A stretch of DNA of 64,000 nt, taken from Eledone cirrhosa (lineage: Eukaryota). Numbering within the stretch: the stretch's first letter is position 1; every line of letters begins with the position of its first letter. The notes beneath the pieces were generated by a model. That model was not told where the DNA came from, searched no databases, and saw nothing but the letters and a program-made list of their open reading frames with translations. This document shows positions 9,116-33,268 of this stretch, piece after piece. The stretch covers positions 9,796,001 through 9,860,000 of the forward strand of contig OZ024765.1 in NCBI GenBank assembly GCA_964016885.1. The letters are read 5' to 3'. The position numbers were made by a program, and so were the translations under genes.

Positions 9116-9165
9116 TCGTTATTATGATGGTATGTGGTATGTGTGAAATCCTTGGTACAGTTAGG

Positions 9166-9263: not shown

Positions 9264-10530
9264 AGTGTGTATATATATGAAAATATAATGGGAAGAGGTG
9301 AGTAGTATAACTTTTATAAGAAATAAAGATCTAGAGATGAGTGAAAACTTTCATCAACGAAATCGTAATGTACACCAACGAAAATATATGTCTACAGAAT
9401 ACAGATTAGAAAAATAAAGTAAGAGCAAATAAATGAGAAGTCACTTAACTTTACATATTTTAGTTTTATTTATATCGTGAAAAATGTTGATCTTCAGATA
9501 TTAAATTGTGGACGTGATTGTCTTTGTCTTTACGTGTTTGTTGGAAATCCTTTTTTAATGTTTACCTTTCTTTAAACATAGTCTTTTTTTAAAAATTAAT
9601 TTTAGATTATTCGTACCTCATCTCTGTGGTCTCTTTTGATGGGAGTCTACCTGTCCTGTTTATTGGTTTTATTTTAAAAGTGATCCATTGGAACATCAGA
9701 TATTAAATGAAATGTTACGTAAAAGACACACCTTATGTTTATTCCAGGTATTTAGAGAGATTTCTACTGACAACAAAATAATACAATAAGGAAATGCCAT
9801 CATCCAGTAAAACTTGGTAATAATCCAGTCTCGTCACTGTCACCATTTACAGTAAACAATGTTAAGAACAAACAAAAACAAGAGAACTATTCATCAGTTA
9901 ATGAAGTGAATACTTAAAATAAAAACATTACTGAATAAAATAAATGTTTAATTTTCATTAAATTGTTTCTTTACTTTCTTTTATAAAACACATTTATTAA
10001 TAGAAATTAAGCACAGCAATGTAGGTTCAAATCCTACTTGCATGTATATATAGGAATCACGTTTACCAATTTACGGGTACGACGTACTAAGCTGGAATGA
10101 CGTATGACATCATTGCAGACGGAGTCGTTGTAGGTTCAAATCAAGCCTAGAGCAATGAGAAATAAAGTGTAGATTTACTTTATGAATTCCCTTCGGGGGA
10201 TGAATTCAAGGACGTCCCGACAAAGCCATGAACGCCATTACATCGAGTTTTCAACCGAACAAAATGTAGTTTTATAAATATTAATTTTCAGAACGAATTC
10301 GTACAGTCCCTATAAGTTGCACACACGCAAAATTTTTGCATCAATTTTTGCGTTTAAGTCAGGCAAGAGTTATGTTTCTTGGCAAACATTTCAAGTTTGT
10401 TAACAAAAAAAATCCTTTTATTTAAAAAAGTTCGCCTGAAATTTGACCAAAGATTTTTCAATTGTTTCGCTTCCGGTTTCTGTATTTTTTCATTAAAAAA
10501 ACAACAATAAATATGCTACGAATTAGAACA

Positions 10531-10941
10531 GTCCTTCTGGCCTAGTGGAATGTATTAGAAACGGTGAAATCCTGGTCTAGGGTTCAATATCTGCCGGTTC
10601 TACACTATGGGTATTATTAATTTTTAGTTTACCTCTTCTAAAATAAAAAAAACCCATTAAAAAGTAAGTTTATAAATATTAATTTTCACTGTGATTTCGT
10701 AACCGTCTCAATGGCCTACTGGTAAATATTAGAGACAGTGGTGATACTGGTTACGGGTTCAATCTGTGTCGGGTTCTACAGAAATTTTGTTTTTATAAAA
10801 AATTGAAAAAGTAGGTTTATAAATATTAATTTTCAGTAAGTTTTTCTGACCGTCTTCGTGGACTAGTGGTAAGTATTAGAGGTGGTGGAGATCCTGGTCT
10901 GGGGTTCGATCTTAGTCAGATTCCTGCAATCGCTATTTTTA
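10531..10941 (+). ncRNA. Three tandem tRNA-like Pol III-type modules
   Basis: Starts at ~10531, 10705 and 10852. Each has an A box (TGGCCTAGTGG-like), a B box (GGTTCRAT) and a downstream T-run. Two are preceded by aaagtargtttataaatattaattttca. Confidence 0.55.
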
Positions 10942-11613
10942 TTTCATTTTATGAAATATTTAAAAAAATTAAACTTTTCGAAAGATTACTGACTTAGATT
11001 ATTATATATGTGTGTGTGTGTTAGATTTGATCCTGCAATGGCCACAGAGACAGATACAAAAATGCTATCAAAATTAATACTTATAAACCTACTTTCTATT
11101 TTATAGAAAAATTGATGTAGTGGCGTTTATCGCATTAGCAATGACATTAATACTTCAAAATGGTTCACTTTCATTTTTATTCTTCTCGAGCTTCCATAAA
11201 ATATTTATCATTTCTCTCTATATAAATATGTGTGTGTGTGTGTTAGATTTGATCATGCAATGTTGCGCTCAGCAATAATGGTTTTCAATTCTATCTTCCC
11301 GCTATCCTTGGTGTATATATAAATGTATATATGTGATTTCTACGTACAACGACAGACATCATTTTTATTTGATAATAATTAGATAAAACTAATTCTACAA
11401 CCCCCGATAAACATTGAAACCACGACTATAAAATATAACAACAACCACGACATAACAGTTTTGGTTAACTATAATTTAATTAAATTATTGCTAGAGATTG
11501 ATCCCTAATATTTTATCTCACTCCTTAACCAGGGAGAAAATGTCCTCGGACTCGGACAATATTGATAAGGAGAGAGGGTATCCATACTTGGCAAGTCTTT
11601 CCAGTTAACATGG

Positions 11614-11646
11614 TATATAAAAGGCAGTAAGAGGTGACCATCACTA
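11614..11646 (+). promoter_or_regulatory. TATA box + initiator-like core promoter (8 copies: 11614, 16531, 21029, 25531, 30019, 34513, 39001, 42172)
   Basis: GGTATATAAAAGGCAG with TCACT ~29 nt downstream in this A-type copy. Activity not shown. Confidence 0.45.
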
Positions 11647-12097: not shown

Positions 12098-12171
<74 letters not shown>

Positions 12172-13369
12172 ACATGGCTTGTATATATACTTTAATTATT
12201 ATATTCGTACAACGAAGTTATGAACTGGAAGCATTAGAGCAAAATCTAGCATTAACAATATTTTGTGAGACTAAACATGGAATGGACAAAGAGATTATTA
12301 GAAGAAGGGCAATTGTCTCTATCTTAAACGTCAATACATTCTACAGAAAATCGAAATGAGAATAATTACAGAGATACTTTACAAAATGTTTCGCGATATG
12401 GTTCAAGTTATTTTGTAGTAATATGCAGCTATATTTATACATGTCTCTTATACCCCTCCACGAGGAATTGTGAATATGTATGAATATGATTTTAAAGATG
12501 GCTAAACATGTTGAAGAAAAAAAAAGGAATTCAGATGATAGGAATAATAAAACATTCCTTTGCCGAGAGGTCTAAAATACTAGTTCAATGATATGTGTGA
12601 TACGACCTAGAATATTGTTTTGGGGCCTGGTCAGAGGACTTCAGAAAATACGGAGAAGCTATTGAAGGAATCCAGAAAAGAACAAAACAGAAAACACCAG
12701 AATTATTAAGAAATCTGTCTTCTGAAGAAAGATGTTAAACTTTAGGGATTGCAAATTTAGAGGAGATAAATCTAAGAGGGTGGGGGGACATGATAGAAAT
12801 ATATATTTAAAGGACTAATATTTAAATAGTAGTACACTATTCCAATGTAAAGCCCTGAATAACTACAGCTTTCGGGGAGATATATCAAACGAGTGACATG
12901 ATAGAAATATTTAAAATAATGAAAAGAATACAATATACAGTATTGCAGAAGTAAATGTAAATATAAGAAGACATCACCATTGTACTGCAGATGAAAGTCA
13001 GTACTCTTTACATTTATCCCAGGTATATAGAAAGCTATCCTGATGTCCACTGATTGAAATATAAAACAATAAAGAAACGCCACAATCCACTAAACGTTAG
13101 TAATAATCCAATTTCCTCTCAGCCGCCATTTACAGTAGAAAATAGTAAGAAAAACAGTCACACTCAGAAGTTAATGCAGTGAAAACAATAAAAATATTAT
13201 TAATAAATAATAATAATTTCATTTCATATTATCATTAAATTGTTTGTCTATTTTTATTGTAAACATAAAATATATACATAAATATATATACGTGATATAT
13301 TTATTATTATTATTATTATTATATATATAGATTCATACATATACATCGATACATTCTGTGAGTATGTCT

Positions 13370-13510
13370 TACTTAGGCAAAAGTCAAGTAATTTGCGGGG
13401 AGGAACCAATCCGTTAAATTGATCCCAGTACATGACTGGTACTATAAGTTATCTGCTCCCAAATCATAAAATTATGGATTGATCTAAACACTGAGAACAC
13501 AAAGGTGGGG
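13370..13510 (-). mobile_element. Highly decayed SINE copy inside each array unit
   Basis: ttaggcaaaagtcaagtaatttgcggggagg...gatcccagtacatgactggtactataagttatc aligns to the reverse complement of the SINE at 829-1020. Confidence 0.65.
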
Positions 13511-15290
13511 TAAAATTATTTAAAAATTGAGGTTTTAATATTTTATCTTTTATTTACAAATTATATATCTTGGTGTCATATTTAAGGATATAATGTAGTT
13601 ATTGGTGGAAATAATATAATATGTGATGAAGAGGTGTATATAACTGTGGATATAGAATTGTTTTAATCATTATTTTTAACGGACGAAAAAACTACGTAAT
13701 GACTTCTAGTCGGGGTTACGGGAAATTACGGCAAAGACCCTCATATATAGGAATCGGGCTAAACAATTTACGGGCACGCCGCTCTAAGTTGGAATATTTT
13801 TCACACACATAGACACGGGAGTTAGGTATGACATACTTCAAATAAGAGAACATTATTACAGACGGAGTCATTGTAGGTTGAAATCATTGTTAGACAGATC
13901 AGAAAGAAAATGGATATTTAATTCATGAAAAAACCTGAAGTGTGAAAGACAGAGTCGATCCTTTCTAGTAACAACACTAAGAAACCCATGAACGCCACCA
14001 CGTCCTAAATCTAACTCTGCGATCTTCATATCAAATCGAAATACTTCACCAACTGTGGAAGATGAAGGATTGAAGAACTATGATATATAGCTAAGAGGCT
14101 TGTCTCCAGAACATTTAGTAGGGTGTAAGCCAAGTGTTGCCAAATATTTTGTCGTCATTACCCACATTCACATGAAAAAATGTTCCACCAGCCACCTGTA
14201 TAGTAAATATTCCAAAGTATACCAAATATGTTTCGTAAATGTTTGTTCCTGGTTTAATTTTCCCAATTAGCTTCCTGATTTTTATTCAGGTTCTTTGCAT
14301 ATATTCCTTGAATAGGTTTTCGGCTAGCATACCTTCTTAAATCTCAAAATTCTATATCGGCCACCAAAGTTTCCAATGGCCCTCAATTTTCTGTTCAGCT
14401 GCTCATCGTCCACCCAACAGTTGAAATCGCCCAGTTGAGGAACCCCTGTGGGTAAGCTACCTCGAATGATGCTATATATTAATCGAGAGAAGGAGGTGAC
14501 TATTATAATTTTTATAAGTAATAATCTTTTAAAGACAAGAGGAAATTTCATCATTAAAATCATAAATATATGTCTACAGAATACAGATTATCAAAATGAA
14601 ATTAAAAGCAAGTAAATCAGGGGCCACTAAACTTTACATATTTAGTTTTATTTCTATCGTGAAAAATGTTGATCTTCAGATATTAGATTATGGCTGTAAT
14701 TGTCTTTGTGTTTACGTGTTTGTTTGAAATCCTTTTTTAATGTTTGTCTCTCTTTAAACATCGTTTATAGTTTGTTAAAATTAATTTTAGATTATTCGTA
14801 CCTCGTCTGTGTGGTTTATTTTGATGTAGCCTCCCTGTCTTGTTTATTGGTTACATTTTAAATGTGATATACAGGAACATCAGACATTAAAATGAAATGT
14901 TACGTAAAACACACACCTTGTGTTTATTCCAGGTATTTAGATAGATGTCCAGATGTCCACTGACAACAAAATAATACAATCATCCAGTGAAACTTGGTAA
15001 TAATCCAGGTTCGTTGCAGCCACCATTTACAGTAAACAATGGTTAGAAAGAATCAAAAACAAAAACAAAAGACATATTCAGCAGTTAATGAAGTGAAAAC
15101 AAAATCAAAACAACTTTACTAAATAAAATTCATTTCTTAATTTCAATAAGGTTTTTTGTTCTTTCTTTTATAAAAAAAAACAAATTTTAATTAAAATATG
15201 TTGAATATAATATGGGACATTACTACAAAGTACAGCATTATTAGTTCAAATCTTACTTAATAAAAGCAATAAATACGAAGTTATTAGTAT

Positions 15291-15403
15291 AGAACCTAAC
15301 GGAAATCGAACCCAAAATGAGGATCTCCACCGTCTCTAGTACTTACCATTAGGCCACAGGGACGGTTACAAAAATTTTTTGAAAATTAATATTTACTTAC
15401 CTA
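15291..15403 (-). ncRNA. tRNA-like Pol III-type module 1 of unit 1
   Basis: Minus strand: taaatattaattttca...GTCCCTG TGGCCTAATGG taagtactagagacggtggagatcctcatttt GGGTTCGATT. Confidence 0.55.
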
Positions 15404-15578
15404 TACTAGAAAAAACCGGAAGTGGAGAAAATTGAAAAACTTTTTCTTTTTCTTCCTCTGATTTTTGCCACGAACGATAACTCGTCTCTGACTTAAATCC
15501 AAATTTTGGATAAAAAAAAATCAGAGGAAGAAAAAGAAGATGTTTTTCAATTTTCTCCACTTCCGGTTTTTTCTAGTA
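15404..15578. repeat. Inverted repeat (~63-bp arms, ~50-bp spacer) with CCGGAAGT motifs, in every unit
   Basis: tactagaaaaaaccggaagtggagaaaattgaaaaa...cttcctctgattttt / aaaaatcagaggaag...tttttcaattttctccacttccggttttttctagta. The spacer contains atccaaattttggat. Confidence 0.92.
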
Positions 15579-15582
15579 ATGA

Positions 15583-15716
15583 AAAAGTAGGTTTATAAAT
15601 ATCAATTTTCAGTAAGTTTCCGTAACCGTCCCTTTAGCCTAGTGGTAAGTATAAGAGCCGGTGGAGGTCCAAGTCCGGGGTTCAATCACTGGCAGTGTGT
15701 CGTATTATATTTTTTA
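15583..15716 (+). ncRNA. tRNA-like Pol III-type module 2 of unit 1
   Basis: aaaagtaggtttataaatatcaattttca...GTCCCTT TAGCCTAGTGG...GGTTCAATC...TTTTTTT. Confidence 0.55.
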
Positions 15717-15735
15717 TAGTATAAAACAAAAATAA

Positions 15736-15874
15736 AAAAGTAACTTTATAAATATTAATTTTCACACTGTTTTTATATCTGTCTCCGTGGCCTAATGGTA
15801 GGTATTAGAGACGGTGGAGAACCTGCACTGGGTTTCGATCTCAGTCAAAGTCTATAGGTAATAATTTCATTTTT
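15736..15874 (+). ncRNA. tRNA-like Pol III-type module 3 of unit 1
   Basis: aaaagtaactttataaatattaattttca...GTCTCCG TGGCCTAATGG taggt...actggg TTTCGAT ctcagt...TTTTTT. Confidence 0.55.
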
Positions 15875-15888
15875 TACTTTGCTAGAGA

Positions 15889-16021
15889 AAAATATATAGT
15901 ACAGATTCGGACTGAGATTGAACACCACATCAGTGTCTACATAGTCTCTAACACCTACCATTAGGCCAACGAAACATATACAAGAACATAAGAAAAAATT
16001 TATATTTATAAACCTACTTTC
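15889..16021 (-). ncRNA. tRNA-like Pol III-type module 4 of unit 1
   Basis: Minus strand: aaagtaggtttataaatataaatttt...GTTTCGT TGGCCTAATGG taggt...GTGTTCAATCTCAGTC...TTTTT. Confidence 0.5.
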
Positions 16022-16949
16022 AATTTCCAAGCAAAATAGATGTGCTGGCGTTCATGGCTTTCTCATTGTTATTTCTACTATAATCGGGTCAATGTTTACA
16101 TTTATTCTTCTGGGGCTTTCATAAAATATATTTTCACTTTTTTTCGGGTTCATTAGATCCTACAACCAGATGATCTACAGGGACCTTCTTCATGGTCATA
16201 GCTGATTATTAAATATATACGGGAGAGTGTGTGTGTGTGTGTGTATTAGATTAGATCTTGCCGTGATGTACTCAGCAATAATAGTTTTCAATTCCGTCGT
16301 TCCTCCATCCTTGGTGTGTATATAAATATATATGTGATTTTAACGTACAACGGCGACAATATATAAATCTGTTTTGTTTGATAATAATTAGATAAAAATT
16401 ATTGCTAGAGATTGATCCCTAATATTTTATCTCACTCCTTAACCAGGGAGGAAAGGTCCTCAGACTCGGACAATGTTGATAAGGAGAGCAGAGTGTATCC
16501 TTATTTGTCACGTCTTTCCAGTTGTCACGGTATATAAAAGGCAGTAGTACTAGTCACTCCTGCGAAAGACGTTGTCAGTTAGCCTTCTGTAACGAGAGAA
16601 GAATGTCGTGACTTTTTCCTTCCTATCACATAATTCATACATTTGTCATCCTTTAGATATCAATATACAAGAGAAAGAAGAAAATTGAGGACTTCGGTCT
16701 TTTAAAAGTAACATTTATTACATTAGAGCAAAATCTTGCATTAACAATATTTTGTGAGACTAAACATGGAATGGACAAAGAGATTATTAGAAGAAGGGCA
16801 ATTGTCTCTATCTTAAACGTCAATACATTCTACAGAAAATCGAAATGAGAATAATTACAGAGATACTTTACAAAATGTTTCGCGATATGGTTCAAGTTAT
16901 TTTGTAGTAATATGCAGCTATATTTATACATGTCTCTTATACCCCTCCA

Positions 16950-17690
16950 CGAGGAATTGTGAATATGTATGAATATGATTTTAAAGATGGCTAAACATGT
17001 TGAAGAAAAAAAAAGGAATTCAGATGATAGGAATAATAAAACATTCCTTTGCCAAGCTAAATGTCGAGAAGTCTAAAACACTAGTTGAATGATATGTGTG
17101 ATAGGACCTAGAATATTGTTTTGGGGCCTGGTCAGAGGACTTCAGAAAATACGGAGAAGCTATTGAAGGAATCCAGAAAAGAACAAAACAGAAAACACCA
17201 GAATTATTAAGAAATCTGTCTTCTGAAGAAAGATGTTAAACTTTAGGGATTGCAAATTTAGAGGAGATAAATCTAAGAGGGTGGGGGGACATGATAGAAA
17301 TATATATTTAAAGGACTAATATTTAAATAGTAGTACACTATTCCAATGTAAAGCCCTGAATAACTACAGCTTTCGGGGAGATATATCAAACGAGTGACAT
17401 GATAGAAATATTTAAAATAATGAAAAGAATACAATATACAGTATTGCAGAAGTAAATGTAAATATAAGAAGACATCACCATTGTACTGCAGATGAAAGTC
17501 AGTACTCTTTACATCTATCCCAGGTATATAGAAAGCTATCCTGATGTCCACTGATCGAAATATAAAACAATAAAGAAACGCCACGATCCACTAAACGTTA
17601 GTAATAATCCAATTTCCTCTCAGCCGCCATTTACAGTAGAAAATAGTAAGAAAAACAGTCACACTCAGAAGTTAATGCAGTGAAAACAAT
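16950..17690 (+). pseudogene. Decayed CR1-type LINE ORF2 C-terminal region (present in all 7 unit copies; best preserved in units 2-3)
   Basis: LKMAKHVEEK / IQMIGIIKHSFAKLNVEKSKTLVE*YV**DLEYCFGAWSEDFRKYGEAIEGIQKR...PELLRNLSSEERC*TLGIANLEEINLRG..DMIEIY, plus a second DMIEIFKIMK. This matches the CR1 pattern MLGxIKRSF...HLEY...WSP...LExIQxR...YEERL...LRGDMIE. Confidence 0.8.
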
Positions 17691-19788
17691 AAAAATATTA
17701 TTAATAAATAATAATAATTTCATTTCATATTATCATTAAATTGTTTGTCTATTTTTATTGTAAACATAAAATATATACATAAATATATATACGTGATATA
17801 TATATTATTATTATTATTATATATATAGATTCATACATATACATCGATACATTCTGTGAGTATGTCTTACTTAGGCAAAAGTCAAGTAATTTGCGGGGAG
17901 GAACCAATCCGTTAAATTGATCCCAGTACATGACTGGTACTATAAGTTATCTGCTCCAAAATCATAAAATTATGGATTGATCTAAACACTGAGAACACAA
18001 AGGTGGGGTAAAATTATTTAAAAATTGAGGTTTTAATATTTTATCTTTTATTTACAAATTATATATTTTGGTGTCATATTTAAGGATATAATGTAGTTAT
18101 TGGTGGAAATAATATAATATGTGATGAAGAGGTGTATATAACTGTGGATATAGAATTGTTTTAATCATTATTTTTAACGGACGAAAAAACTACATAATGA
18201 CTTCTAGTCGGGGTTACGTGAAATTACGGCAAAGACCCTCAAATATAGGAATCGGGCTAAACAATTTACGGGCACGTCGCTCTAAGTTGGAATATTTTTC
18301 ACACACATAGACACGGGAGTTAGGTATGACATACTTCAAATAAGAGAACATTATTACAGACGGAGTCATTGTAGGTTGAAATCATTGTTAGACAGATCAG
18401 AAAGAAAATGGATATTTAATTCATGAAAAAACCTGAAGTGTGAAAGACAGAGTCGATCCTTTCTAGTAACAACACTAAGAAACCCATGAACGCCACCACG
18501 TCCTAAATCTAACTCTGCGATCGTCAAATCAAATCGAAATACTTCACCAACTGTGGAAGATGAAGGATTGAAGAACTATGATATATAGCTAAGAGGCTTG
18601 TCTCCAGAACATTTAGTAGGGTGTAAGCCAAGTGTTGCCAAATATTTTGTCGTCATTACCCACATTCACATGAAAAAATGTTCCACCAGCCACCTGTATA
18701 GTAAATATTCCAAAGTATACCAAATATGTTTCGTAAATGTTTGTTCCTGGTTTAATTTTCCCAATTAGCTTCCTGATTTTTATTCAGGTTCTTTGCATAT
18801 ATTCCTTGAATAGGTTTTCGGCTAGCATACCTTCTTAAATCTCAAAATTCTATATCGGCCACCAAAGTTTCCAATGGCCCTCAATTTTCTGTTCAGCTGC
18901 TCATCGTCCACCTAACAGTTGAAATCGCCCAGTTGAGGAACCCCTGTGGGTAAGCTACCTCGAATGATGCTATATATTAATCGAGAGAAGGAGGTGACTA
19001 TTATAATTTTTATAAGTAATAATCTTTTAAAGACAAGAGGAAATTTCATCATTAAAATCATAAATATATGTCTACAGAATACAGATTATCAAAATGAAAT
19101 TAAAAGCAAGTAAATCAGGGGCCACTAAACTTTACATATTTAGTTTTATTTCTATCGTGAAAAATGTTGATCTTCAGATATTAGATTATGGCTGTAATTG
19201 TCTTTGTGTTTACGTGTTTGTTTGAAATCCTTTTTTAATGTTTGTCTCTCTTTAAACATCGTTTATAGTTTGTTAAAATTAATTTTAGATTATTCGTACC
19301 TCGTCTGTGTGGTTTATTTTGATGTAGCCTCCCTGTCTTGTTTATTGGTTACATTTTAAATGTGATATACAGGAACATCAGACATTAAAATGAAATGTTA
19401 CGTAAAACACACACCTTGTGTTTATTCCAGGTATTTAGATAGATGTCCAGATGTCCACTGACAACAAAATAATACAATCATCCAGTGAAACTTGGTAATA
19501 ATCCAGGTTCGTTGCAGCCACCATTTACAGTAAACAATGGTTAGAAAGAATCAAAAACAAAAACAAAAGACATATTCAGCAGTTAATGAAGTGAAAACAA
19601 AATCAAAACAACTTTACTAAATAAAATTCATTTCTTAATTTCAATAAGGTTTTTTGTTCTTTCTTTTATAAAAAAAAACAAATTTTAATTAAAATATGTT
19701 GAATATAATATGGGACATTACTACAAAGTACAGCATTATTAGTTCAAATCTTACTTAATAAAAGCAATAAATACGAAGTTATTAGTAT

Positions 19789-20519
19789 AGAACCTAACGG
19801 AAATCGAACCCAAAATGAGGATCTCCACCGTCTCTAGTACTTACCATTAGGCCACAGGGACGGTTACAAAAATTTTTTGAAAATTAATATTTACTTACCT
19901 ATACTAGAAAAAACCGGAAGTGGAGAAAATTGAAAAACTTTTTCTTTTTCTTCCTCTGATTTTTGCCACGAACGATAACTCGTCTCTGACTTAAATCCAA
20001 ATTTTGGATAAAAAAAAATCAGAGGAAGAAAAAGAAGATGTTTTTCAATTTTCTCCACTTCCGGTTTTTTCTAGTAATGAAAAAGTAGGTTTATAAATAT
20101 CAATTTTCAGTAAGTTTCCGTAACCGTCCCTTTAGCCTAGTGGTAAGTATAAGAGCCGGTGGAGGTCCAAGTCCGGGGTTCAATCACTGGCAGTGTGTCG
20201 TATTATATTTTTTATAGTATAAAACAAAAATAAAAAAGTAACTTTATAAATATTAATTTTCACACTGTTTTTATATCTGTCTCCGTGGCCTAATGGTAGG
20301 TATTAGAGACGGTGGAGAACCTGCACTGGGTTTCGATCTCAGTCAAAGTCTATAGGTAATAATTTCATTTTTTACTTTGCTAGAGAAAAATATATAGTAC
20401 AGATTCGGACTGAGATTGAACACCACATCAGTGTCTACATAGTCTCTAACACCTACCATTAGGCCAACGAAACATATACAAGAACATAAGAAAAAATTTA
20501 TATTTATAAACCTACTTTC
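19789..20519. ncRNA. Four tRNA-like modules + palindrome, unit 2
   Basis: Copy of 15291-16021. Confidence 0.55.
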
Positions 20520-23500
20520 AATTTCCAAGCAAAATAGATGTGCTGGCGTTCATGGCTTTCTCATTGTTATTTCTACTATAATCGGGTCAATGTTTACATT
20601 TATTCTTCTGGGGCTTTCATAAAATATATTTTCACTTTTTTTCGGGTTCATTAGATCCTACAACCAGATGATCTACAGGGACCTTCTTCATGGTCATAGC
20701 TGATTATTAAATATATACGGGAGAGTGTGTGTGTGTGTGTGTATTAGATTAGATCTTGCCGTGATGTACTCAGCAATAATAGTTTTCAATTCCGTCGTTC
20801 CTCCATCCTTGGTGTGTATATAAATATATATGTGATTTTAACGTACAACGGCGACAATATATAAATCTGTTTTGTTTGATAATAATTAGATAAAAATTAT
20901 TGCTAGAGATTGATCCCTAATATTTTATCTCACTCCTTAACCAGGGAGGAAAGGTCCTCAGACTCGGACAATGTTGATAAGGAGAGCAGAGTGTATCCTT
21001 ATTTGTCACGTCTTTCCAGTTGTCACGGTATATAAAAGGCAGTAGTACTAGTCACTCCTGCGAAAGACGTTGTCAGTTAGCCTTCTGTAACGAGAGAAGA
21101 ATGTCGTGACTTTTTCCTTCCTATCACATAATTCATACATTTGTCATCCTTTAGATATCAATATACAAGAGAAAGAAGAAAATTGAGGACTTCGGTCTTT
21201 TAAAAGTAACATTTATTACATTAGAGCAAAATCTTGCATTAACAATATTTTGTGAGACTAAACATGGAATGGACAAAGAGATTATTAGAAGAAGGGCAAT
21301 TGTCTCTATCTTAAACGTCAATACATTCTACAGAAAATCGAAATGAGAATAATTACAGAGATACTTTACAAAATGTTTCGCGATATGGTTCAAGTTATTT
21401 TGTAGTAATATGCAGCTATATTTATACATGTCTCTTATACCCCTCCACGAGGAATTGTGAATATGTATGAATATGATTTTAAAGATGGCTAAACATGTTG
21501 AAGAAAAAAAAAGGAATTCAGATGATAGGAATAATAAAACATTCCTTTGCCAAGCTAAATGTCGAGAAGTCTAAAACACTAGTTGAATGATATGTGTGAT
21601 AGGACCTAGAATATTGTTTTGGGGCCTGGTCAGAGGACTTCAGAAAATACGGAGAAGCTATTGAAGGAATCCAGAAAAGAACAAAACAGAAAACACCAGA
21701 ATTATTAAGAAATCTGTCTTCTGAAGAAAGATGTTAAACTTTAGGGATTGCAAATTTAGAGGAGATAAATCTAAGAGGGTGGGGGGACATGATAGAAATA
21801 TATATTTAAAGGACTAATATTTAAATAGTAGTACACTATTCCAATGTAAAGCCCTGAATAACTACAGCTTTCGGGGAGATATATCAAACGAGTGACATGA
21901 TAGAAATATTTAAAATAATGAAAAGAATACAATATACAGTATTGCAGAAGTAAATGTAAATATAAGAAGACATCACCATTGTACTGCAGATGAAAGTCAG
22001 TACTCTTTACATCTATCCCAGGTATATAGAAAGCTATCCTGATGTCCACTGATCGAAATATAAAACAATAAAGAAACGCCACGATCCACTAAACGTTAGT
22101 AATAATCCAATTTCCTCTCAGCCGCCATTTACAGTAGAAAATAGTAAGAAAAACAGTCACACTCAGAAGTTAATGCAGTGAAAACAATAAAAATATTATT
22201 AATAAATAATAATAATTTCATTTCATATTATCATTAAATTGTTTGTCTATTTTTATTGTAAACATAAAATATATACATAAATATATATACGTGATATATA
22301 TATTATTATTATTATTATATATATAGATTCATACATATACATCGATACATTCTGTGAGTATGTCTTACTTAGGCAAAAGTCAAGTAATTTGCGGGGAGGA
22401 ACCAATCCGTTAAATTGATCCCAGTACATGACTGGTACTATAAGTTATCTGCTCCAAAATCATAAAATTATGGATTGATCTAAACACTGAGAACACAAAG
22501 GTGGGGTAAAATTATTTAAAAATTGAGGTTTTAATATTTTATCTTTTATTTACAAATTATATATTTTGGTGTCATATTTAAGGATATAATGTAGTTATTG
22601 GTGGAAATAATATAATATGTGATGAAGAGGTGTATATAACTGTGGATATAGAATTGTTTTAATCATTATTTTTAACGGACGAAAAAACTACATAATGACT
22701 TCTAGTCGGGGTTACGTGAAATTACGGCAAAGACCCTCAAATATAGGAATCGGGCTAAACAATTTACGGGCACGTCGCTCTAAGTTGGAATATTTTTCAC
22801 ACACATAGACACGGGAGTTAGGTATGACATACTTCAAATAAGAGAACATTATTACAGACGGAGTCATTGTAGGTTGAAATCATTGTTAGACAGATCAGAA
22901 AGAAAATGGATATTTAATTCATGAAAAAACCTGAAGTGTGAAAGACAGAGTCGATCCTTTCTAGTAACAACACTAAGAAACCCATGAACGCCACCACGTC
23001 CTAAATCTAACTCTGCGATCGTCAAATCAAATCGAAATACTTCACCAACTGTGGAAGATGAAGGATTGAAGAACTATGATATATAGCTAAGAGGCTTGTC
23101 TCCAGAACATTTAGTAGGGTGTAAGCCAAGTGTTGCCAAATATTTTGTCGTCATTACCCACATTCACATGAAAAAATGTTCCACCAGCCACCTGTATAGT
23201 AAATATTCCAAAGTATACCAAATATGTTTCGTAAATGTTTGTTCCTGGTTTAATTTTCCCAATTAGCTTCCTGATTTTTATTCAGGTTCTTTGCATATAT
23301 TCCTTGAATAGGTTTTCGGCTAGCATACCTTCTTAAATCTCAAAATTCTATATCGGCCACCAAAGTTTCCAATGGCCCTCAATTTTCTGTTCAGCTGCTC
23401 ATCGTCCACCTAACAGTTGAAATCGCCCAGTTGAGGAACCCCTGTGGGTAAGCTACCTCGAATGATGCTATATATTAATCGAGAGAAGGAGGTGACTATT

Positions 23501-24286
23501 ATAATTTTTATAAGTAATAATCTTTTAAAGACAAGAGGAAATTTCATCATTAAAATCATAAATATATGTCTACAGAATACAGATTATCAAAATGAAATTA
23601 AAAGCAAGTAAATCAGGGGCCACTAAACTTTACATATTTAGTTTTATTTCTATCGTGAAAAATGTTGATCTTCAGATATTAGATTATGGCTGTAATTGTC
23701 TTTGTGTTTACGTGTTTGTTTGAAATCCTTTTTTAATGTTTGTCTCTCTTTAAACATCGTTTATAGTTTGTTAAAATTAATTTTAGATTATTCGTACCTC
23801 GTCTGTGTGGTTTATTTTGATGTAGCCTCCCTGTCTTGTTTATTGGTTACATTTTAAATGTGATATACAGGAACATCAGACATTAAAATGAAATGTTACG
23901 TAAAACACACACCTTGTGTTTATTCCAGGTATTTAGATAGATGTCCAGATGTCCACTGACAACAAAATAATACAATCATCCAGTGAAACTTGGTAATAAT
24001 CCAGGTTCGTTGCAGCCACCATTTACAGTAAACAATGGTTAGAAAGAATCAAAAACAAAAACAAAAGACATATTCAGCAGTTAATGAAGTGAAAACAAAA
24101 TCAAAACAACTTTACTAAATAAAATTCATTTCTTAATTTCAATAAGGTTTTTTGTTCTTTCTTTTATAAAAAAAAACAAATTTTAATTAAAATATGTTGA
24201 ATATAATATGGGACATTACTACAAAGTACAGCATTATTAGTTCAAATCTTACTTAATAAAAGCAATAAATACGAAGTTATTAGTAT

Positions 24287-25031
24287 AGAACCTAACGGAA
24301 ATCGAACCCAAAATGAGGATCTCCACCGTCTCTAGTGCTTACCATTAGGCCACAGGGACGGTTACAAAAATTTTTTGAAAATTAATATTTATTTACCTAT
24401 ACTAGAAAAAACCGGAAGTGGAGAAAATTGAAAAACTTTTTCTTTTTCTTCCTCTGATTTTTGCCACGAACGATAACTCGTCTCTGACTTAAATCCAAAT
24501 TTTGGATAAAAAAAAATCAGAGGAAGAAAAAGAAGATGTTTTTCAATTTTCTCCACTTCCGGTTTTTTCTAGTAATGAAAAAGTAGGTTTATGAATATCA
24601 ATTTTCAGTAAGTTTCCGTAACCGTCCCTTTAGCCTAGTGATAAGTATAAGAGCCGGTGGAGGTCCAGGTCCGGGGTTCAATCACTGGCAGTGTGTCGTA
24701 TTATATTTTTTATAGTATGAAACAAAAATAAAAAAGTAACTTTATAAATATTAATTTTCACACTGTTTTTATATCTGTCTCCGTGGCCTAATGGTAGGTA
24801 TTAGAGACGGTGGGGAACCTGCTCTGGGTTTCGATCTCAGTCAAAATCTATAGGTGATAATTTCATTTTTTACTTTGCTAGAGAAAAATTTAAATTTAAA
24901 AATATATAGTACAGATTCGGACTGAGATTGAACACCACATCAGTGTCTACATAGTCTCTAACACCTACCATTAGGCCAACGAAACAGATACAAGAACATA
25001 AGAAAAAATTAATATTTATAAACTTACTTTC
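24287..25031. ncRNA. Four tRNA-like modules + palindrome, unit 3
   Basis: Copy of 15291-16021 with minor variants. Confidence 0.55.
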
Positions 25032-28000
25032 AATTTCCAAGCAAAATAGATGTGCTGGCGTTCATGGCTTTCTCATTCTTATTTCTACTATAATCGGGTC
25101 AATGTTTACATTTATTCTTCTGGGGCTTTCATAAAATATATTTTCACTTTTTTTGGGGTTCATTAGATCCTACAACCAGATGATCTACAGGGACCTTCTT
25201 CATGGTCATAGCTGATTATTAAATATATACGGGAGAGTGTGTGTATTAGATTAGATCTTGCCGTGATGTTCTCAGCAATAATAGTTTTCAATTCCGTCGT
25301 CCCTCCATCCTTGGTGTGTATATAAATATATATGTGAATTTAACGTACAACGGCGACAATATATAAATCTGTTTTGTTTGATAATAATTAGATAAAAATT
25401 ATTGCTAGAGATTGATCCCTAATATTTTATCTCACTCCTTAACCAGGGAGGAAAGGTCCTCAGACTCGGACAATGTTGATAAGGAGAGCAGAGTGTATCC
25501 TTATTTGTCACGTCTTTCCAGTTGTCACGGTATATAAAAGGCAGTAGTACTAGTCACTCCTGCGAAAGACGTTGTCAGTTAGCCTTCTGTAACGAGAGAA
25601 GAATGTCGTGACTTTTTCCTCCCTATCACATAATTCATACATTTGTCATCCTTTAGATATCAATATACAAGAGAAAGAAGAAAATTGAGGACTTCGGTCT
25701 TTTAAAAGTAACATTTATTACATTAGAGCAAAATCTTGCATTAACAATATTTTGTGAGACTAAACATGGAATGGACAAAGAGATTATTAGAAGAAGGGCA
25801 ATTGTCTCTATCTTAAACGTCAATACATTCTACAGAAAATCGAAATGAGAATAATTACAGAGATACTTTACAAAATGTTTCGCGATATGGTTCAAGTTAT
25901 TTTGTAGTAATATGCAGCTATATTTATACATGTCTCTTATACCCCTCCACGAGGAATTGTGAATATGTATGAATATGATTTTAAAGATGGCTAAACATGT
26001 TGAAGAAAAAAAAAGGAATTCAGATGATAGGAATAATAAAACATTCCTTTGCCGAGAGGTCTAAAATACTAGTTCAATGATATGTGTGATACGACCTAGA
26101 ATATTGTTTTGGGGCCTGGTCAGAGGACTTCAGAAAATACGGAGAAGCTATTGAAGGAATCCAGAAAAGAACAAAACAGAAAACACCAGAATTATTAAGA
26201 AATCTGTCTTCTGAAGAAAGATGTTAAACTTTAGGGATTGCAAATTTAGAGGAGATAAATCTAAGAGGGTGGGGGGGACATGATAGAAATATATATTTAA
26301 AGGACTAATATTTAAATAGTAGTACACTATTCCAATGTAAAGCCCTGAATAACTACAGCTTTCGGGGAGATATATCAAACGAGTGACATGATAGAAATAT
26401 TTAAAATAATGAAAAGAATACAATATACAGTATTGCAGAAGTAAATGTAAATATAAGAAGACATCACCATTGTACTGCAGATGAAAGTCAGTACTCTTTA
26501 CATCTATCCCAGGTATATAGAAAGCTATCCTGATGTCCACTGATCGAAATATAAAACAATAAAGAAACGCCACGATCCACTAAACGTTAGTAATAATCCA
26601 ATTTCCTCTCAGCCGCCATTTACAGTAGAAAATAGTAAGAAAAACAGTCACACTCAGAAGTTAATGCAGTGAAAACAATAAAAATATTATTAATAAATAA
26701 TAATAATTTCATTTCATATTATCATTAAATTGTTTGTCTATTTTTATTGTAAACATAAAATATATACATAAATATATATACGTGATATATATATTATTAT
26801 TATTATTATATATATAGATTCATACATATACATCGATACATTCTGTGAGTATGTCTTACTTAGGCAAAAGTCAAGTAATTTGCGGGGAGGAACCAATCCG
26901 TTAAATTGATCCCAGTACATGACTGGTACTATAAGTTATCTGCTCCAAAATCATAAAATTATGGATTGATCTAAACACTGAGAACACAAAGGTGGGGTAA
27001 AATTATTTAAAAATTGAGGTTTTAATATTTTATCTTTTATTTACAAATTATATATTTTGGTGTCATATTTAAGGATATAATGTAGTTATTGGTGGAAATA
27101 ATATAATATGTGATGAAGAGGTGTATATAACTGTGGATATAGAATTGTTTTAATCATTATTTTTAACGGACGAAAAAACTACATAATGACTTCTAGTCGG
27201 GGTTACGTGAAATTACGGCAAAGACCCTCAAATATAGGAATCGGGCTAAACAATTTACGGGCACGTCGCTCTAAGTTGGAATATTTTTCACACACATAGA
27301 CACGGGAGTTAGGTATGACATACTTCAAATAAGAGAACATTATTACAGACGGAGTCATTGTAGGTTGAAATCATTGTTAGACAGATCAGAAAGAAAATGG
27401 ATATTTAATTCATGAAAAAACCTGAAGTGTGAAAGACAGAGTCGATCCTTTCTAGTAACAACACTAAGAAACCCATGAACGCCACCACGTCCTAAATCTA
27501 ACTCTGCGATCGTCATATCAAATCGAAATACTTCACCAACTGTGGAAGATGAAGGATTGAAGAACTATGATATATAGCTAAGAGGCTTGTCTCCAGAACA
27601 TTTAGTAGGGTGTAAGCCAAGTGTTGCCAAATATTTTGTCGTCATTACCCACATTCACATGAAAAAATGTTCCACCAGCCACCTGTATAGTAAATATTCC
27701 AAAGTATACCAAATATGTTTCGTAAATGTTTGTTCCTGGTTTAATTTTCCCAATTAGCTTCCTGATTTTTATTCAGGTTCTTTGCATATATTCCTTGAAT
27801 AGGTTTTCGGCTAGCATACCTTCTTAAATCTCAAAATTCTATATCGGCCACCAAAGTTTCCAATGGCCCTCAATTTTCTGTTCAGCTGCTCATCGCCCAC
27901 CCAACAACAGTTGAAACCGCCCAGTTGAGGAACCCCTGTGGGTAAGCTACATATTAATCGAGAGGAGGAGGTGACTATTATAATTTTTATAAGTAATAAT

Positions 28001-28765
28001 CTTTTAAAGACAAGAGGAAATTTCATCATTAAAATCATAAATATATGTCTACAGAATACAGATTATCAAAATGAAATTAAAAGCAAGTAAATCAGGGGCC
28101 ACTAAACTTTACATATTTAGTTTTATTTCTATCGTGAAAAATGTTGATCTTCAGATATTAGATTATGGCTGTAATTGTCTTTGTGTTTACGTGTTTGTTT
28201 GAAATCCTTTTTTAATGTTTGTCTCTCTTTAAACATCGTTTATAGTTTGTTAAAATTAATTTTAGATTATTCGTACCTCGTCTGTGTGGTTTATTTTGAT
28301 GTAGCCTCCCTGTCTTGTTTATTGGTTACATTTTAAATGTGATATACAGGAACATCAGACATTAAAATGAAATGTTACGTAAAACACACACCTTGTGTTT
28401 ATTCCAGGTATTTAGATAGATGTCCAGATGTCCACTGACAACAAAATAATACAATCATCCAGTGAAACTTGGTAATAATCCAGGTTCGTTGCAGCCACCA
28501 TTTACAGTAAACAATGGTTAGAAAGAATCAAAAACAAAAACAAAAGACATATTCAGCAGTTAATGAAGTGAAAACAAAATCAAAACAACTTTACTAAATA
28601 AAATTCATTTCTTAATTTCAATAAGGTTTTTTGTTCTTTCTTTTATAAAAAAAAACAAATTTTAATTAAAATATGTTGAATATAATATGGGACATTACTA
28701 CAAAGTACAGCATTATTAGTTCAAATCTTACTTAATAAAAGCAATAAATACGAAGTTATTAGTAT

Positions 28766-29509
28766 AGAACCTAACGGAAATCGAACCCAAAATGAGGATC
28801 TCCACCGTCTCTAGTACTTACCATTAGGCCACAGGGACGGTTACAAAAATTTTTTGAAAATTAATATTTACTTACCTATACTAGAAAAAACCGGAAGTGG
28901 AGAAAATTGAAAAACTTTTTCTTTTTCTTCCTCTGATTTTTGCCACGAACGATAACTCGTCTCTGACTTAAATCCAAATTTTGGATTAAAAAAAATCAGA
29001 GGAAGAAAAAGAAGATGTTTTTCAATTTTCTCCACTTCCGGTTTTTTCTAGTAATGAAAAAGTAGGTTTATAAATATCAATTTTCAGTAAGTTTCCGTAA
29101 CCGTCCCTTTAGCCTAGTGGTAAGTATAAGAGCCGGTGAGGTCCAGGTCCGGGGTTCAATCACTGGCAGTGTGTCGTATTATATTTTTTATAGTATAAAA
29201 CAAAAATAAAAAAGTAACTTTATAAATATTAATTTTCACACTGTTTTTATATCTGTCTCCGTGGCCTAATGGTAGGTATTAGAGACGGTGGAGAACCTGC
29301 TCTGGGTTTTGATCTCAGTCAAAGTCTATAGGTAATAATTTCATTTTTTACTTTGCTAGAGAAAAATTTAAATTTAAAAATATATAGTACAGATTCGGAC
29401 TGAGATTGAACACCACATCAGTGTCTATATAGTCTCTAACACCTACCATTAGGCCAACGAAACAGAAACAAGAACATAAGAAAAAATTAATATTTATAAA
29501 CCTACTTTC
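28766..29509. ncRNA. Four tRNA-like modules + palindrome, unit 4
   Basis: Copy of 15291-16021 with minor variants. Confidence 0.55.
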
Positions 29510-32500
29510 AATTTCCAAGCAAAATAGATGTGCTGGCGTTCATGGCTTTCTCATTGTTATTTCTACTATAATCGGGTCAATGTTTACATTTATTCTTCTG
29601 GGGCTTTCATAAAATATATTTTCACTTTTTTTCGGGTTCATTAGATCCTACAACCAGATGATCTACAGGGACCTTCTTCATGGTCATAGCTGATTATTAA
29701 ATATATACGGGAGAGTGTGTGTGTGTGTGTGTATTAGATTAGATCTTGCCGTGATGTACTCAGCAATAATAGTTTTCAATTCCGTCGTTCCTCCATCCTT
29801 GGTGTGTATATAAATATATATGTGATTTTAACGTACAACGGCGACAATATATAAATCTGTTTTGTTTGATAATAATTAGATAAAAATTATTGCTAGAGAT
29901 TGATCCCTAATATTTTATCTCACTCCTTAACCAGGGAGGAAAGGTCCTCAGACTCGGACAATGTTGATAAGGAGAGCAGAGTGTATCCTTATTTGTCACG
30001 TCTTTCCAGTTGTCACGGTATATAAAAGGCAGTAGTACTAGTCACTCCTGCGAAAGACGTTGTCAGTTAGCCTTCTGTAACGAGAGAAGAATGTCGTGAC
30101 TTTTTCCTCCCTATCACATAATTCATACATTTGTCATCCTTTAGATATCAATATACAAGAGAAAGAAGAAAATTGAGGACTTCGGTCTTTTAAAAGTAAC
30201 ATTTATTACATTAGAGCAAAATCTTGCATTAACAATATTTTGTGAGACTAAACATGGAATGGACAAAGAGATTATTAGAAGAAGGGCAATTGTCTCTATC
30301 TTAAACGTCAATACATTCTACAGAAAATCGAAATGAGAATAATTACAGAGATACTTTACAAAATGTTTCGCGATATGGTTCAAGTTATTTTGTAGTAATA
30401 TGCAGCTATATTTATACATGTCTCTTATACCCCTCCACGAGGAATTGTGAATATGTATGAATATGATTTTAAAGATGGCTAAACATGTTGAAGAAAAAAA
30501 AAGGAATTCAGATGATAGGAATAATAAAACATTCCTTTGCCGAGAGGTCTAAAATACTAGTTCAATGATATGTGTGATACAACCTAGAATATTGTTTTGG
30601 GGCCTGGTCAGAGGACTTCAGAAAATACGGAGAAGCTATTGAAGGAATCCAGAAAAGAACAAAACAGAAAACACCAGAATTATTAAGAAATCTGTCTTCT
30701 GAAGAAAGATGTTAAACTTTAGGGATTGCAAATTTAGAGGAGATAAATCTAAGAGGGTGGGGGGACATGATAGAAATATATATTTAAAGGACTAATATTT
30801 AAATAGTAGTACACTATTCCAATGTAAAGCCCTGAATAACTACAGCTTTCGGGGAGATATATCAAACGAGTGACATGATAGAAATATTTAAAATAATGAA
30901 AAGAATACAATATACAGTATTGCAGAAGTAAATGTAAATATAAGAAGACATCACCATTGTACTGCAGATGAAAGTCAGTACTCTTTACATTTATCCCAGG
31001 TATATAGAAAGCTATCCTGATGTCCACTGATTGAAATATAAAACAATAAAGAAACGCCACAATCCACTAAACGTTAGTAATAATCCAATTTCCTCTCAGC
31101 CGCCATTTACAGTAGAAAATAGTAAGAAAAACAGTCACACTCAGAAGTTAATGCAGTGAAAACAATAAAAATATTATTAATAAATAATAATAATTTCATT
31201 TCATATTATCATTAAATTGTTTGTCTATTTTTATTGTAAACATAAAATATATACATAAATATATATACGTGATATATATATTATTATTATTATTATTATC
31301 TATATAGATTCATACATATACATCGATACATTCTGTGAGTATGTCTTACTTAGGCAAAAGTCAAGTAATTTGCGGGGAGGAACCAATCCGTTAAATTGAT
31401 CCCAGTACATGACTGGTACTATAAGTTATCTGCTCCAAAATCATAAAATTATGGATTGATCTAAACACTGAGAACACAAAGGTGGGGTAAAATTATTTAA
31501 AAATTGAGGTTTTAATATTTTATCTTTTATTTACAAATTATATATCTTGGTGTAATATTTAAGGATATAATGTAGTTATTGGTGGAAATAATATAATATG
31601 TGATGAAGAGGTGTATATAACTGTGGATATAGAATTGTTTTAATCATTATTTTTAACGGACGAAAAAACTACATAATGACTTCTAGTCGGGGTTACGGGA
31701 AATTACGGCAAAGACCCTCATATATAGGAATCGGGCTAAACAATTTACGGGCACGTCGCTCTAAGTTGGAATATTTTTCACACACATAGACACGGGAGTT
31801 AGGTATGACATACTTCAAATAAGAGAACATTATTACAGACGGAGTCATTGTAGGTTGAAATCATTGTTAGACAGATCAGAAAGAAAATGGATATTTAATT
31901 CATGAAAAAACCTGAAGTGTGAAAGACAGAGTCGATCCTTTCTAGTAACAACACTAAGAAACCCATGAACGCCACCACGTCCTAAATCTAACTCTGCGAT
32001 CGTCATATCAAATCGAAATACTTCACCAACTGTGGAAGATGAAGGATTGAAGAACTATGATATATAGCTAAGAGGCTTGTCTCCAGAACATTTAGTAGGG
32101 TGTAAGCCAAGTGTTGCCAAATATTTTGTCGTCATTACCCACATTCACATGAAAAAATGTTCCACCAGCCACCTGTATAGTAAATATTCCAAAGTATACC
32201 AAATATGTTTCGTAAATGTTTGTTCCTGGTTTAATTTTCCCAATTAGCTTCCTGATTTTTATTCAGGTTCTTTGCATATATTCCTTGAATAGGTTTTCGG
32301 CTAGCATACCTTCTTAAATCTCAAAATTCTATATCGGCCACCAAAGTTTCCAATGGCCCTCAATTTTCTGTTCAGCTGCTCATCGTCCACCCAACAGTTG
32401 AAATCGCCCAGTTGAGGAACCCCTGTGGGTAAGCTACCTCGAATGATGCTATATATTAATCGAGAGAAGGAGGTGACTATTATAATTTTTATAAGTAATA

Positions 32501-33268
32501 ATCTTTTAAAGACAAGAGGAAATTTCATCATTAAAATCATAAATATATGTCTACAGAATACAGATTATCAAAATGAAATTAAAAGCAAGTAAATCAGGGG
32601 CCACTAAACTTTACATATTTAGTTTTATTTCTATCGTGAAAAATGTTGATCTTCAGATATTAGATTATGGCTGTAATTGTCTTTGTGTTTACGTGTTTGT
32701 TTGAAATCCTTTTTTAATGTTTGTCTCTCTTTAAACATCGTTTATAGTTTGTTAAAATTAATTTTAGATTATTCGTACCTCGTCTGTGTGGTTTATTTTG
32801 ATGTAGCCTCCCTGTCTTGTTTATTGGTTACATTTTAAATGTGATATACAGGAACATCAGACATTAAAATGAAATGTTACGTAAAACACACACCTTGTGT
32901 TTATTCCAGGTATTTAGATAGATGTCCAGATGTCCACTGACAACAAAATAATACAATCATCCAGTGAAACTTGGTAATAATCCAGGTTCGTTGCAGCCAC
33001 CATTTACAGTAAACAATGGTTAGAAAGAATCAAAAACAAAAACAAAAGACATATTCAGCAGTTAATGAAGTGAAAACAAAATCAAAACAACTTTACTAAA
33101 TAAAATTCATTTCTTAATTTCAATAAGGTTTTTTGTTCTTTCTTTTATAAAAAAAAAACAAATTTTAATTAAAATATGTTGAATATAATATGGGACATTA
33201 CTACAAAGTACAGCATTATTAGTTCAAATCTTACTTAATAAAAGCAATAAATACGAAGTTATTAGTAT

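Follow-up and report, generated by a model that had tools for sequence, protein, structure and literature searches.

The window analyzed here, that is, the entire stretch of 64,000 nucleotides of Eledone cirrhosa DNA, carries a family of short modules that have the layout of a tRNA gene but no longer form a cloverleaf, have been multiplied by tandem and inverted duplication, and retain an upstream TATA element at a fixed spacing while diverging fast elsewhere. What is new in this analysis is that the TATA element and its spacing are conserved whereas the non-promoter part of the module changes about 2-3 times faster than the neighboring DNA. The interpretation that we favor, with moderate confidence, is that the modules are a lineage-specific family of tRNA-derived Pol III mini-genes which would encode ~90-nt RNAs other than tRNAs and would evolve by birth and death.

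The array and its modules

A covariance-model search of the window recovers 30 near-full modules, at 44-88 bits, with the next matches at 11 bits, so that the ~30 modules counted in the preliminary description (four per unit in six units, plus about six in the flanks) are all accounted for. The tandem array contains 24 of them, the left flank three (f1-f3) and the right flank another three (g1, g2 and g4); in addition, three fragments (f0, f4 and g0) lie in the flanks. The nhmmer search of the window yields 36 matches at E<=10: 33 of them, all at E<=1.4e-4, are split into 24 in the array, five in the left flank and four in the right flank, and the other three are noise. Neither search finds a module outside 10.2-41.7 kb of the 64-kb window, where the modules span ~31 kb. 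Module positions are numbered with the tRNA-like GTC as +1 unless counted from the predicted start. The features are as follows.

10261..11101, no strand: left-flank cluster (f0, f1, f2, f3, f4)
12232..40159, no strand: tandem array, ~6.2 units of 4.49 kb, with four modules per unit (m1 minus, m2 plus, m3 plus, m4 minus)
15262..15407, minus strand: module m1 of unit 1; degenerate TATA element 15407-15382, A box 15356-15346, B box 15312-15302
15404..15578, no strand: inverted repeat between the divergent m1 and m2; 63-nt arms, 97% complementary
15584..15715, plus strand: module m2 of unit 1; TATA element 15584-15609, A box 15635-15645, B box 15679-15689, T6 15710-15715
15737..15875, plus strand: module m3 of unit 1; TATA element 15737-15762, A box 15788-15798, B box 15832-15842, T6 15870-15875
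15888..16020, minus strand: module m4 of unit 1; TATA element 16020-15995, A box 15968-15958, B box 15924-15914, T5 15892-15888
16046..16053, minus strand: RAACGCCA motif far upstream of m4, also found at f0/g0, f4/g4 and, as an orphan copy, at 13990
19782..20525, no strand: unit 2 cluster of four modules, from the profile and covariance searches
24280..25037, no strand: unit 3 cluster of four modules; m2 with TATA and A-box lesions
28759..29516, no strand: unit 4 cluster of four modules; m3 with a B-box lesion
33262..34019, no strand: unit 5 cluster of four modules; m2 with a TATA lesion
37740..38497, no strand: unit 6 cluster of four modules, from the profile and covariance searches
40769..41657, no strand: right-flank cluster (g0, g1, g2, g4)

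The units are 4488-4502 bp each and 98.4-99.3% identical. The two flanks (left, 9300-12230; right, 40160-42900) are older paralogous copies of the unit, at 66-87% in BLAST blocks, and are 89-95% identical to each other. The unit contains no stop-to-stop frame longer than 105 aa and does contain transposon debris, and thus looks like an ordinary tandem-amplified segment. Module m1 of unit 1, which has paralogs in every unit, carries an internal T4 at 15317-15314 and is likely truncated or defective, with a predicted product of 50 nt; for m2, m3 and m4 of the same unit, the predicted RNAs are ~90 nt (from ~15624), ~97 nt (from ~15777) and ~91 nt, respectively. In the left flank, f0 (10261) consists of the TATA element only, f1 (10527) has no TATA element, f2 (10661) and f3 (10808) are near-intact, and f4 (minus strand, 11095) is broken inside the A box. 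In the right flank, g0 (40769) is again a TATA element only, followed by g1 (41193), by g2 (41366), which has a 10-nt deletion between the boxes and looks like a fusion of f2 and f3, and by g4 (minus strand, 41650), in which the boxes are degenerate.

Promoter layout and terminator

The A box starts at position 8, and the spacer between the A and B boxes is 32-34 nt long in nine of the 10 distinct modules (23 nt in the deleted g2), the tRNA-type geometry of ~33 nt that the preliminary description had read from the sequence. TATAAA is found at -34/-35 and the first run of at least four T's at +81..+92. In the promoters of the rodent 4.5SH and 4.5SI genes, as given in PMC10137851, the A box lies 11 bp from the start, the B box follows 30-40 nt later and a TATA-like box occupies -31/-24. 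Setting the start of the modules 11 bp before the A box (-4 in the GTC numbering) puts TATAAA at -30 and the A box at +12; in most copies, the start predicted in this way is a purine preceded by a pyrimidine, and TATAA lies at -30/-31 from it in eight of the 10 distinct modules. The predicted RNAs would be 88-99 nt long and end at the T-run. Thus, the modules display the A box, the TATA-like box near -30 and the T4+ terminator of a type-2 Pol III gene with an upstream TATA.

The quality of these signals is uneven. Compared with the A-box consensus TRGYnnARBGG (PMC10137851), six of the 10 distinct modules show no mismatch, two show one and two show two. A B box is present in all 10, as had been claimed, but each copy departs from GGTTCRAnYCY by one or two mismatches and none is perfect; in all of them, the base at tRNA position 61 is no longer C. 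Retention of the TATA was also claimed for the paralogs, and it holds in general but not for the six copies of m1, none of which has TATAAA. The T-run, described as usually kept, indeed follows the B box as the first T4+ run in nine of the 10 distinct modules, the exception being m1, where a T4 at +47 precedes the B box in all six copies. The combined TATA, A-box and B-box pattern occurs 18 times in the window and in none of 100 local shuffles, although these 18 matches represent one origin, not 18, because the copies are homologous. The 12 of 30 copies that fail the pattern are the six m1, two m2, one m3, f1, g2 and g4.

Neither tRNAs nor catalogued RNAs

The modules are not tRNAs, as had been proposed: ARAGORN detects 0 tRNA genes in the window, and the cloverleaf does not form, with pairing in 51% of the cells, no better than in slid controls (24% for the anticodon stem and 57% for the acceptor). 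The further suggestion of a possibly undescribed RNA family is in line with the Rfam searches, which give 0 families at the gathering threshold for the window and, for three clusters, no tRNA, vault or SRP match at E<=10. What the modules do have in common with tRNA genes is the A box at position 8, the 33-nt spacer, remnants resembling the D-arm and the T-arm, and fast-evolving inner flanks; unlike tRNA genes, they have neither a cloverleaf nor an anticodon stem. Plant and S. pombe tRNA genes carry an upstream TATA. Most animal tRNA genes have no TATA box (PMC10137851).

In the search for a parent isotype, Gln and Glu scored highest among 117 viral tRNAs, by small margins and in a biased set, and the covariance model of the modules scores only four of 100 viral tRNA loci, at 10-17 bits. 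A presumed likeness to tRNA-Glu with an inverted anticodon loop was dropped. The module pattern has 0 matches in metagenome contigs, as does a second, tRNA-leaning pattern that was too strict, and blastn against phages returned chance matches only. Pre-miRNAs were considered and rejected, given that the predicted hairpins, at 36-39 nt, are too short for precursors of this kind.

The majority sequence folds as two hairpins (z=-3.0, 8/1000 shuffles); in the first, the 5' end pairs with positions ~26-35 around the D-arm remnant, and the tip of the second is the B box. The paralogs pair 78% of the cells of this structure, compared to 33-48% in slid controls, and the consensus is reached by 2/500 shuffles under RIBOSUM alifold but by 144/500, which is not significant, under default RNAalifold. 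Covariation among the paralogs, which had been proposed as a check, is not above chance (111/500 shuffles reach the paired fraction and 176/500 the score), so that, in the absence of a cloverleaf as well, the fold resembling VA-RNA or a tRNA mimic that was envisaged in the preliminary description is not supported. Single copies fold at z of -1.7 to +0.7, which is not unusually stable, and the 5' hairpin dominates in five of nine copies. The founder RNA probably had the two-hairpin fold.

A fast-changing zone around a conserved TATA element

Conservation was assessed among 8-9 paralogs, with the caveat that the modules were initially chosen by motifs later scored as conserved. Identity is 0.87 in the TATA element (26 bp), 0.86 in the A box, 0.78 in the B box and 0.66 between the boxes; it drops to 0.60 at positions 1-7 and to 0.54 both in the upstream spacer and at positions 63-72, and is at the chance level beyond -45 and +73. 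Part of g4 is misaligned; leaving out g4 and f1 gives 0.87 for the TATA element, 0.86 for the A box, 0.80 for the B box and 0.71 for the inter-box DNA. The mean over -44..+72 is ~0.71 (28 pairs, f1 left out), matching the 25-30% divergence previously estimated by eye. The boxes are more conserved than the module spacers, as implied by the preliminary description (permutation p about 0.003), a contrast that arises because the spacers diverge faster than the background.

This becomes apparent when the DNA outside the modules is used as the yardstick. Between the left flank and the unit (the broken interior of f4 excluded), the outside DNA has diverged at 286/1527 positions (0.19) and the non-promoter DNA of the modules at 57/170 (0.34; p=2e-5). 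The preliminary description would have been undermined by boxes no more conserved than the neighboring sequence, and on this point the outcome is divided: the TATA element is less diverged than the outside DNA (7/78, 0.09; p=0.03) but the A and B boxes are not different from it (8/49, 0.16; p=0.85). Between the right flank and the unit, the corresponding values are 56/141 (0.40) for the non-promoter module DNA, 179/1057 (0.17) outside and 0.14 for the promoter; between the two flanks, they are 24/190 (0.126) and 87/1843 (0.047), with the promoter parts, at 10/99 (0.10), also more diverged than the outside DNA. Among the tandem units, in an unbiased full-length alignment, 16/495 columns are variable in the modules compared to 42/3964 outside (p=4e-4), and the GC-stratified expectation for the modules is 5.5 against the 16 observed; six of these 16 variants share one pattern, without which p=0.06, and six fall in the TATA element or the boxes. 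Thus, at three time depths, the non-promoter module DNA diverges ~2-3 times faster than its neighbors, and the module sits in a faster-changing zone where the TATA element and the boxes are kept from changing as fast. In the palindrome formed by m1 and m2, similarity is 97% between the upstream arms and 77% between the modules, a difference to which hairpin-driven conversion could add.

From the TATA element to the B box, there are five indels per 203 substitutions, compared to 23 per 251 in colinear outside DNA, a contrast for which the p of 2e-4 is overstated because all pairs share m3. The outside divergence itself is understated, the outside blocks having been picked by BLAST, and neighboring modules may not be true positional paralogs, as they may predate their blocks or exchange sequence. 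A strand-biased C>T signature was not found among the changes counted (C>T 9/13, G>A 11/20). At active tRNA loci, the inner 5' flank is about four times more divergent, which is attributed to transcription-associated mutagenesis (PMC6130373), and in primate snaR divergence is 14% inside and 3% outside (PMC3045588). We take the resemblance of the fast non-promoter divergence to these two cases as indirect evidence, although not proof, of Pol III activity at the modules in the germline.

Spread by duplication of DNA

The modules f2-f3-f4 and g2-g4 are colinear with m2-m3-m4 within blocks several hundred bases long, m1 and m2 form the arms of an inverted duplication, and neither target-site duplications nor terminal inverted repeats accompany the copies, all of which bears out the earlier claim that whole units were duplicated at the DNA level. 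The shared upstream block is 44 bp long, and homology ends fairly sharply near -44 and +72. The RAACGCCA motif common to m4, f0/g0, f4/g4 and the orphan indicates that the duplicated unit reached beyond the TATA element. Target-site duplications are not above cross-pair controls in any of the nine copies, and the TG...CA terminal repeat occurs in one of nine (g1, which reads TGTAG...CTACA); these findings argue against SINE copies, MITEs and solo LTRs of the Helenus type. The tree of the modules is star-like, with 0 of seven inner branches well supported.

tRNA-derived SINEs of octopuses include OK and OR1. Another one is OR2 (PMC4758252). Like the modules, these SINEs have a tRNA-type head with A and B boxes. 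The window itself contains two SINE families, with seven copies (B boxes at 906, 2643, 2892, 44531, 48294, 54206 and 63446) and two copies (3728 and 56562), which are dispersed, have unrelated 5' flanks and possess a body after the B box, unlike the modules with their shared upstream block and T-run end; the similarity is limited to the boxes. The 3' part of family 1 also occurs as a 94-bp tandem at 951-1221; the body of family 2, which may be OR2-like, is presumably CORE-like. Origin of the modules from these SINEs was rejected, as six of the seven copies of family 1 score within shuffles and family 2 shows box-level likeness only. The modules were also rejected as retroposed SINEs in view of the shared 44-bp block, the lack of target-site duplications and the clustered rather than dispersed arrangement.

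Each arm of the m1/m2 inverted repeat bears the motif CCGGAAGT, which we take to be ETS-like, and CCGGAAG motifs occur upstream of the flank clusters too (10476 and 40984). Contigs of run X1 pile up on this inverted repeat as they do on the modules, and the repeat may travel with other paralogs. Matches to miRNA families of Rfam at 15419-15563 (MIR7504, at 63 bits against a gathering threshold of 83, and others) were dismissed as reflecting the palindrome only. A run of variants at 15341-16338 is common to units 3 and 5 and does not extend beyond the module cluster and the DNA to its right, as though a single conversion tract had come from a more diverged unit.

Paralogs outside the window

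In run X1, 69 contigs have another letter at 15343. Among the matches listed, seven contigs join the TATA element to the module body through new spacer letters, and in six of these seven listed contigs the spacing is exact to the base; hence further paralogs elsewhere keep the TATA element and its spacing. Judging from these contigs, the module family is larger than the window. In a very close relative (run X3), the whole cluster is found at ~98%. Run X7 covers 15308-15700 on depth-2 contigs at ~97%, and run X9 gives mostly AT-rich noise and one 97-nt piece of m3, so that neither shows conservation in distant species. In run X1, contig depth is 893-1165 for the unit, 59-473 for each module-variant contig and 9-15 for each dispersed-repeat contig; in X3, it is 6-7 for the unit, level with the background. 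These depths, which are not copy numbers and come from libraries of unstated types, hint at many multi-copy paralogs and a labile array size.

How the modules might work

If the modules are Pol III mini-genes, TFIIIC would bind the internal A and B boxes and TFIIIB would sit on the 26-bp TATA element, probably offsetting the imperfect B box; transcription would start ~11 nt before the A box and end at the T-run. Transcription in the germline would raise the local mutation rate at the modules, and selection would maintain the sequence and geometry of the promoter but not the sequence of the RNA, with module copies being born and dying. By analogy to snaR and 4.5SH, the most likely role of the RNA would be that of an abundant decoy or ligand of RNA-binding proteins.

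A more daring extension, which we regard as improbable, is that this is an octopus-specific, huge, fast-turnover family of hundreds of copies or more, producing abundant and diverse two-hairpin RNAs of ~90 nt that would titrate double-stranded RNA-binding proteins such as ADAR. Were this the case, array size would vary strongly between close relatives, and transcription-driven hypermutation within a fixed promoter frame would act as a diversifier of the module RNAs. Titration of ADAR would then take place in the group of animals whose RNA editing is the most extensive.

Alternative explanations

The alternative that survives best, although we consider it unlikely, is that the modules are a dead or dying repeat, namely, an old tRNA- or SINE-derived gene that was multiplied as a short unit resembling a satellite and is carried passively in the 4.49-kb array, yielding no RNA of consequence today. 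The failure of 12 of the 30 copies to fit the promoter pattern, with three more copies reduced to fragments, would be expected on such a history, and the A and B boxes not conserved above the outside level, the lack of covariation, the star-like tree and the presence of transposon debris in the same unit are all compatible with it. Passive decay, however, would not give rise to a TATA element twice as conserved as the neighboring DNA, and it predicts neither spacers diverging 2-3 times faster than their neighbors nor the low number of indels and the exact spacing in six of the seven listed outside paralogs.

We find it distinctly less plausible that the array is a chromatin element acting through the binding of TFIIIC and TFIIIB, as a tDNA-type barrier or a nuclear organizer, with RNA as a by-product. 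Promoter signals and geometry are kept whereas RNA sequence and fold are not, as such a function would allow, and isolated B-box-like motifs lie near the clusters (10024, 10133, 15243, 40532 and 40641). The B box is the main TFIIIC site; here it is the least intact of the three signals, with 0 of 10 perfect, which disfavors the insulator array bound by TFIIIC that the preliminary description offered as an option. The best preservation of the TATA element, together with a terminator-like T-run at a fitting distance in nine of the 10 modules, points instead to initiation and termination.

There is very little room for the possibility that the modules are parts of a mobile element, either solo LTRs of a tRNA-containing TRIM of the Helenus type or a tRNA-containing MITE. 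Like the modules, Helenus is a short repeat with a non-functional tRNA-like A/B region and upstream sequence attached; its LTRs can be 120 bp long, keep the A and B boxes and occur in bivalves (PMC10886601), and the fairly sharp ends of homology and the terminal repeat of g1 could be accommodated too. The modules nevertheless show no target-site duplications, the TG...CA repeat is confined to one of nine copies, and no LTR-internal-LTR layout, PBS or PPT is discernible by eye; furthermore, the copies are confined to 10.2-41.7 kb of the window, the far-upstream motif is shared, and three motifs from the window are absent from the text of the Helenus supplement (PMC10886601). Within this window, the mobile-element explanation is largely refuted.

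Divergent cephalopod vault RNA genes are equally far-fetched, even though promoter type, size range and clustering of paralogs agree. Vault RNAs have a terminal stem in which the 5' and 3' ends pair, and in the modules the 5' end is unpaired with the 3' end in nine of nine copies. The helix between the A box and the region after the B box is 68.5% paired, the same as in shuffles, the spacer is fixed at tRNA length, and the three clusters have no Vault match at E<=10, although Rfam can miss vault RNAs, which are poorly conserved outside the boxes; upstream elements of the TATA/CRE type do occur in vault RNA genes (PMC7058938, PMC7904556).

Relation to known Pol III RNA families

Returning to the Pol III mini-genes that we favor, rodent 4.5SH is similar in being a Pol III RNA of ~94 nt with A and B boxes and a TATA-like box at -31/-24, encoded by many copies that each lie in a 4-5 kb tandem repeat and restricted to a narrow lineage (PMC10137851). 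Unlike 4.5SH, the modules comprise four paralogs per unit that are ~30% apart, occur in both orientations and have a canonical TATAAA within a 26-bp conserved block. The three genes of 4.5SI are tied to the B2 SINE (PMC10137851), whereas for the 30 module copies no parent SINE was found in the window. Primate snaR is similar in its ~30 Pol III genes, its segmental duplication and a gene that diverges several times faster than its flanks, and it forms two tandem arrays with copy numbers that differ between species (PMC3045588); the word TATA is absent from the main text of that paper. The origin of 4.5SH is from 7SL/B1 and that of snaR, an RNA of ~117-120 nt with demonstrated expression and NF90 binding, is from Alu, whereas the modules, known here from sequence alone, are tRNA-like in layout; for descent from 7SL, B1 or Alu, the three clusters give no SRP-type Rfam match at E<=10, and, judging from the relatives of the LINE fragment described below, the host is likely an octopus. 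What the modules share with both families is amplification inside multi-kb tandem or segmental duplications, which is a mode of spread and not a sign of membership: they are analogous to 4.5SH and snaR but belong to neither.

In the largely open-access literature, we found no cephalopod family of small Pol III RNAs like 4.5SH or snaR, and the module motifs have no match in the files searched from the supplement of PMC4824008; there may be a prior entry for the modules in a repeat library. Lineage-specific families of small Pol III RNAs in tandem DNA repeats are known from rodents (4.5SH) and apes (snaR). If our reading is correct, the mollusc case would represent the same route arising independently, through a tRNA layout, an added TATA, segmental amplification and fast divergence. 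RNAs of this kind would be missed by tRNA scanners and Rfam as well as by poly(A) RNA-seq and miRNA-seq. The locus also offers a natural test of transcription-associated mutagenesis, in that putatively transcribed and untranscribed DNA lie within the same duplications and no cloverleaf constrains the putatively transcribed DNA of the modules.

Other features of the window

The window consists of AT-rich DNA with many micro- and minisatellites, including a dense run of unrelated minisatellites at 45900-63300 (periods 58, 123, 59, 57/118, 49, 85 and 61). A perfect T-arm-like hairpin lies isolated at 10021-10037 and 40529-40545; its stem has 5 bp and its loop 7 nt, and it matches the B box in full but is not preceded by an A box. 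A weaker paralog is found at 15238-15253, and another B-box-like motif follows 110 bp beyond these hairpins (10133 and 40641). The hairpins may be additional TFIIIC sites or what is left of SINEs. The Pol II-type motif TATATAAAA is present at 16531-16539 in each unit and at 11614 and 42172, in surroundings conserved in the unit and both flanks, with splice-acceptor-like sites further on (about 14925 and 17515); the unit may also harbor a Pol II gene, either non-coding or encoding a short peptide.

Each unit also contains, at 14150-14450, a fragment of a dispersed repeat with many contigs at 80-90% in runs X1 and X3, the end of which we take to resemble the termini of hAT-type MITEs, and, at 17130-17310, a decayed reading frame presumably related to the C-terminus of ORF2 of a CR1-type LINE. 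A broken transposase region at 6420-7430 (frame 6599-7006) is presumably Tc1/mariner-like. A LINE fragment at 8624-9118 on the minus strand has RT and PHD-finger relatives; among its 41 matches, the named relatives are Octopus bimaculoides and Octopus sinensis, both at 62% over part of the query.
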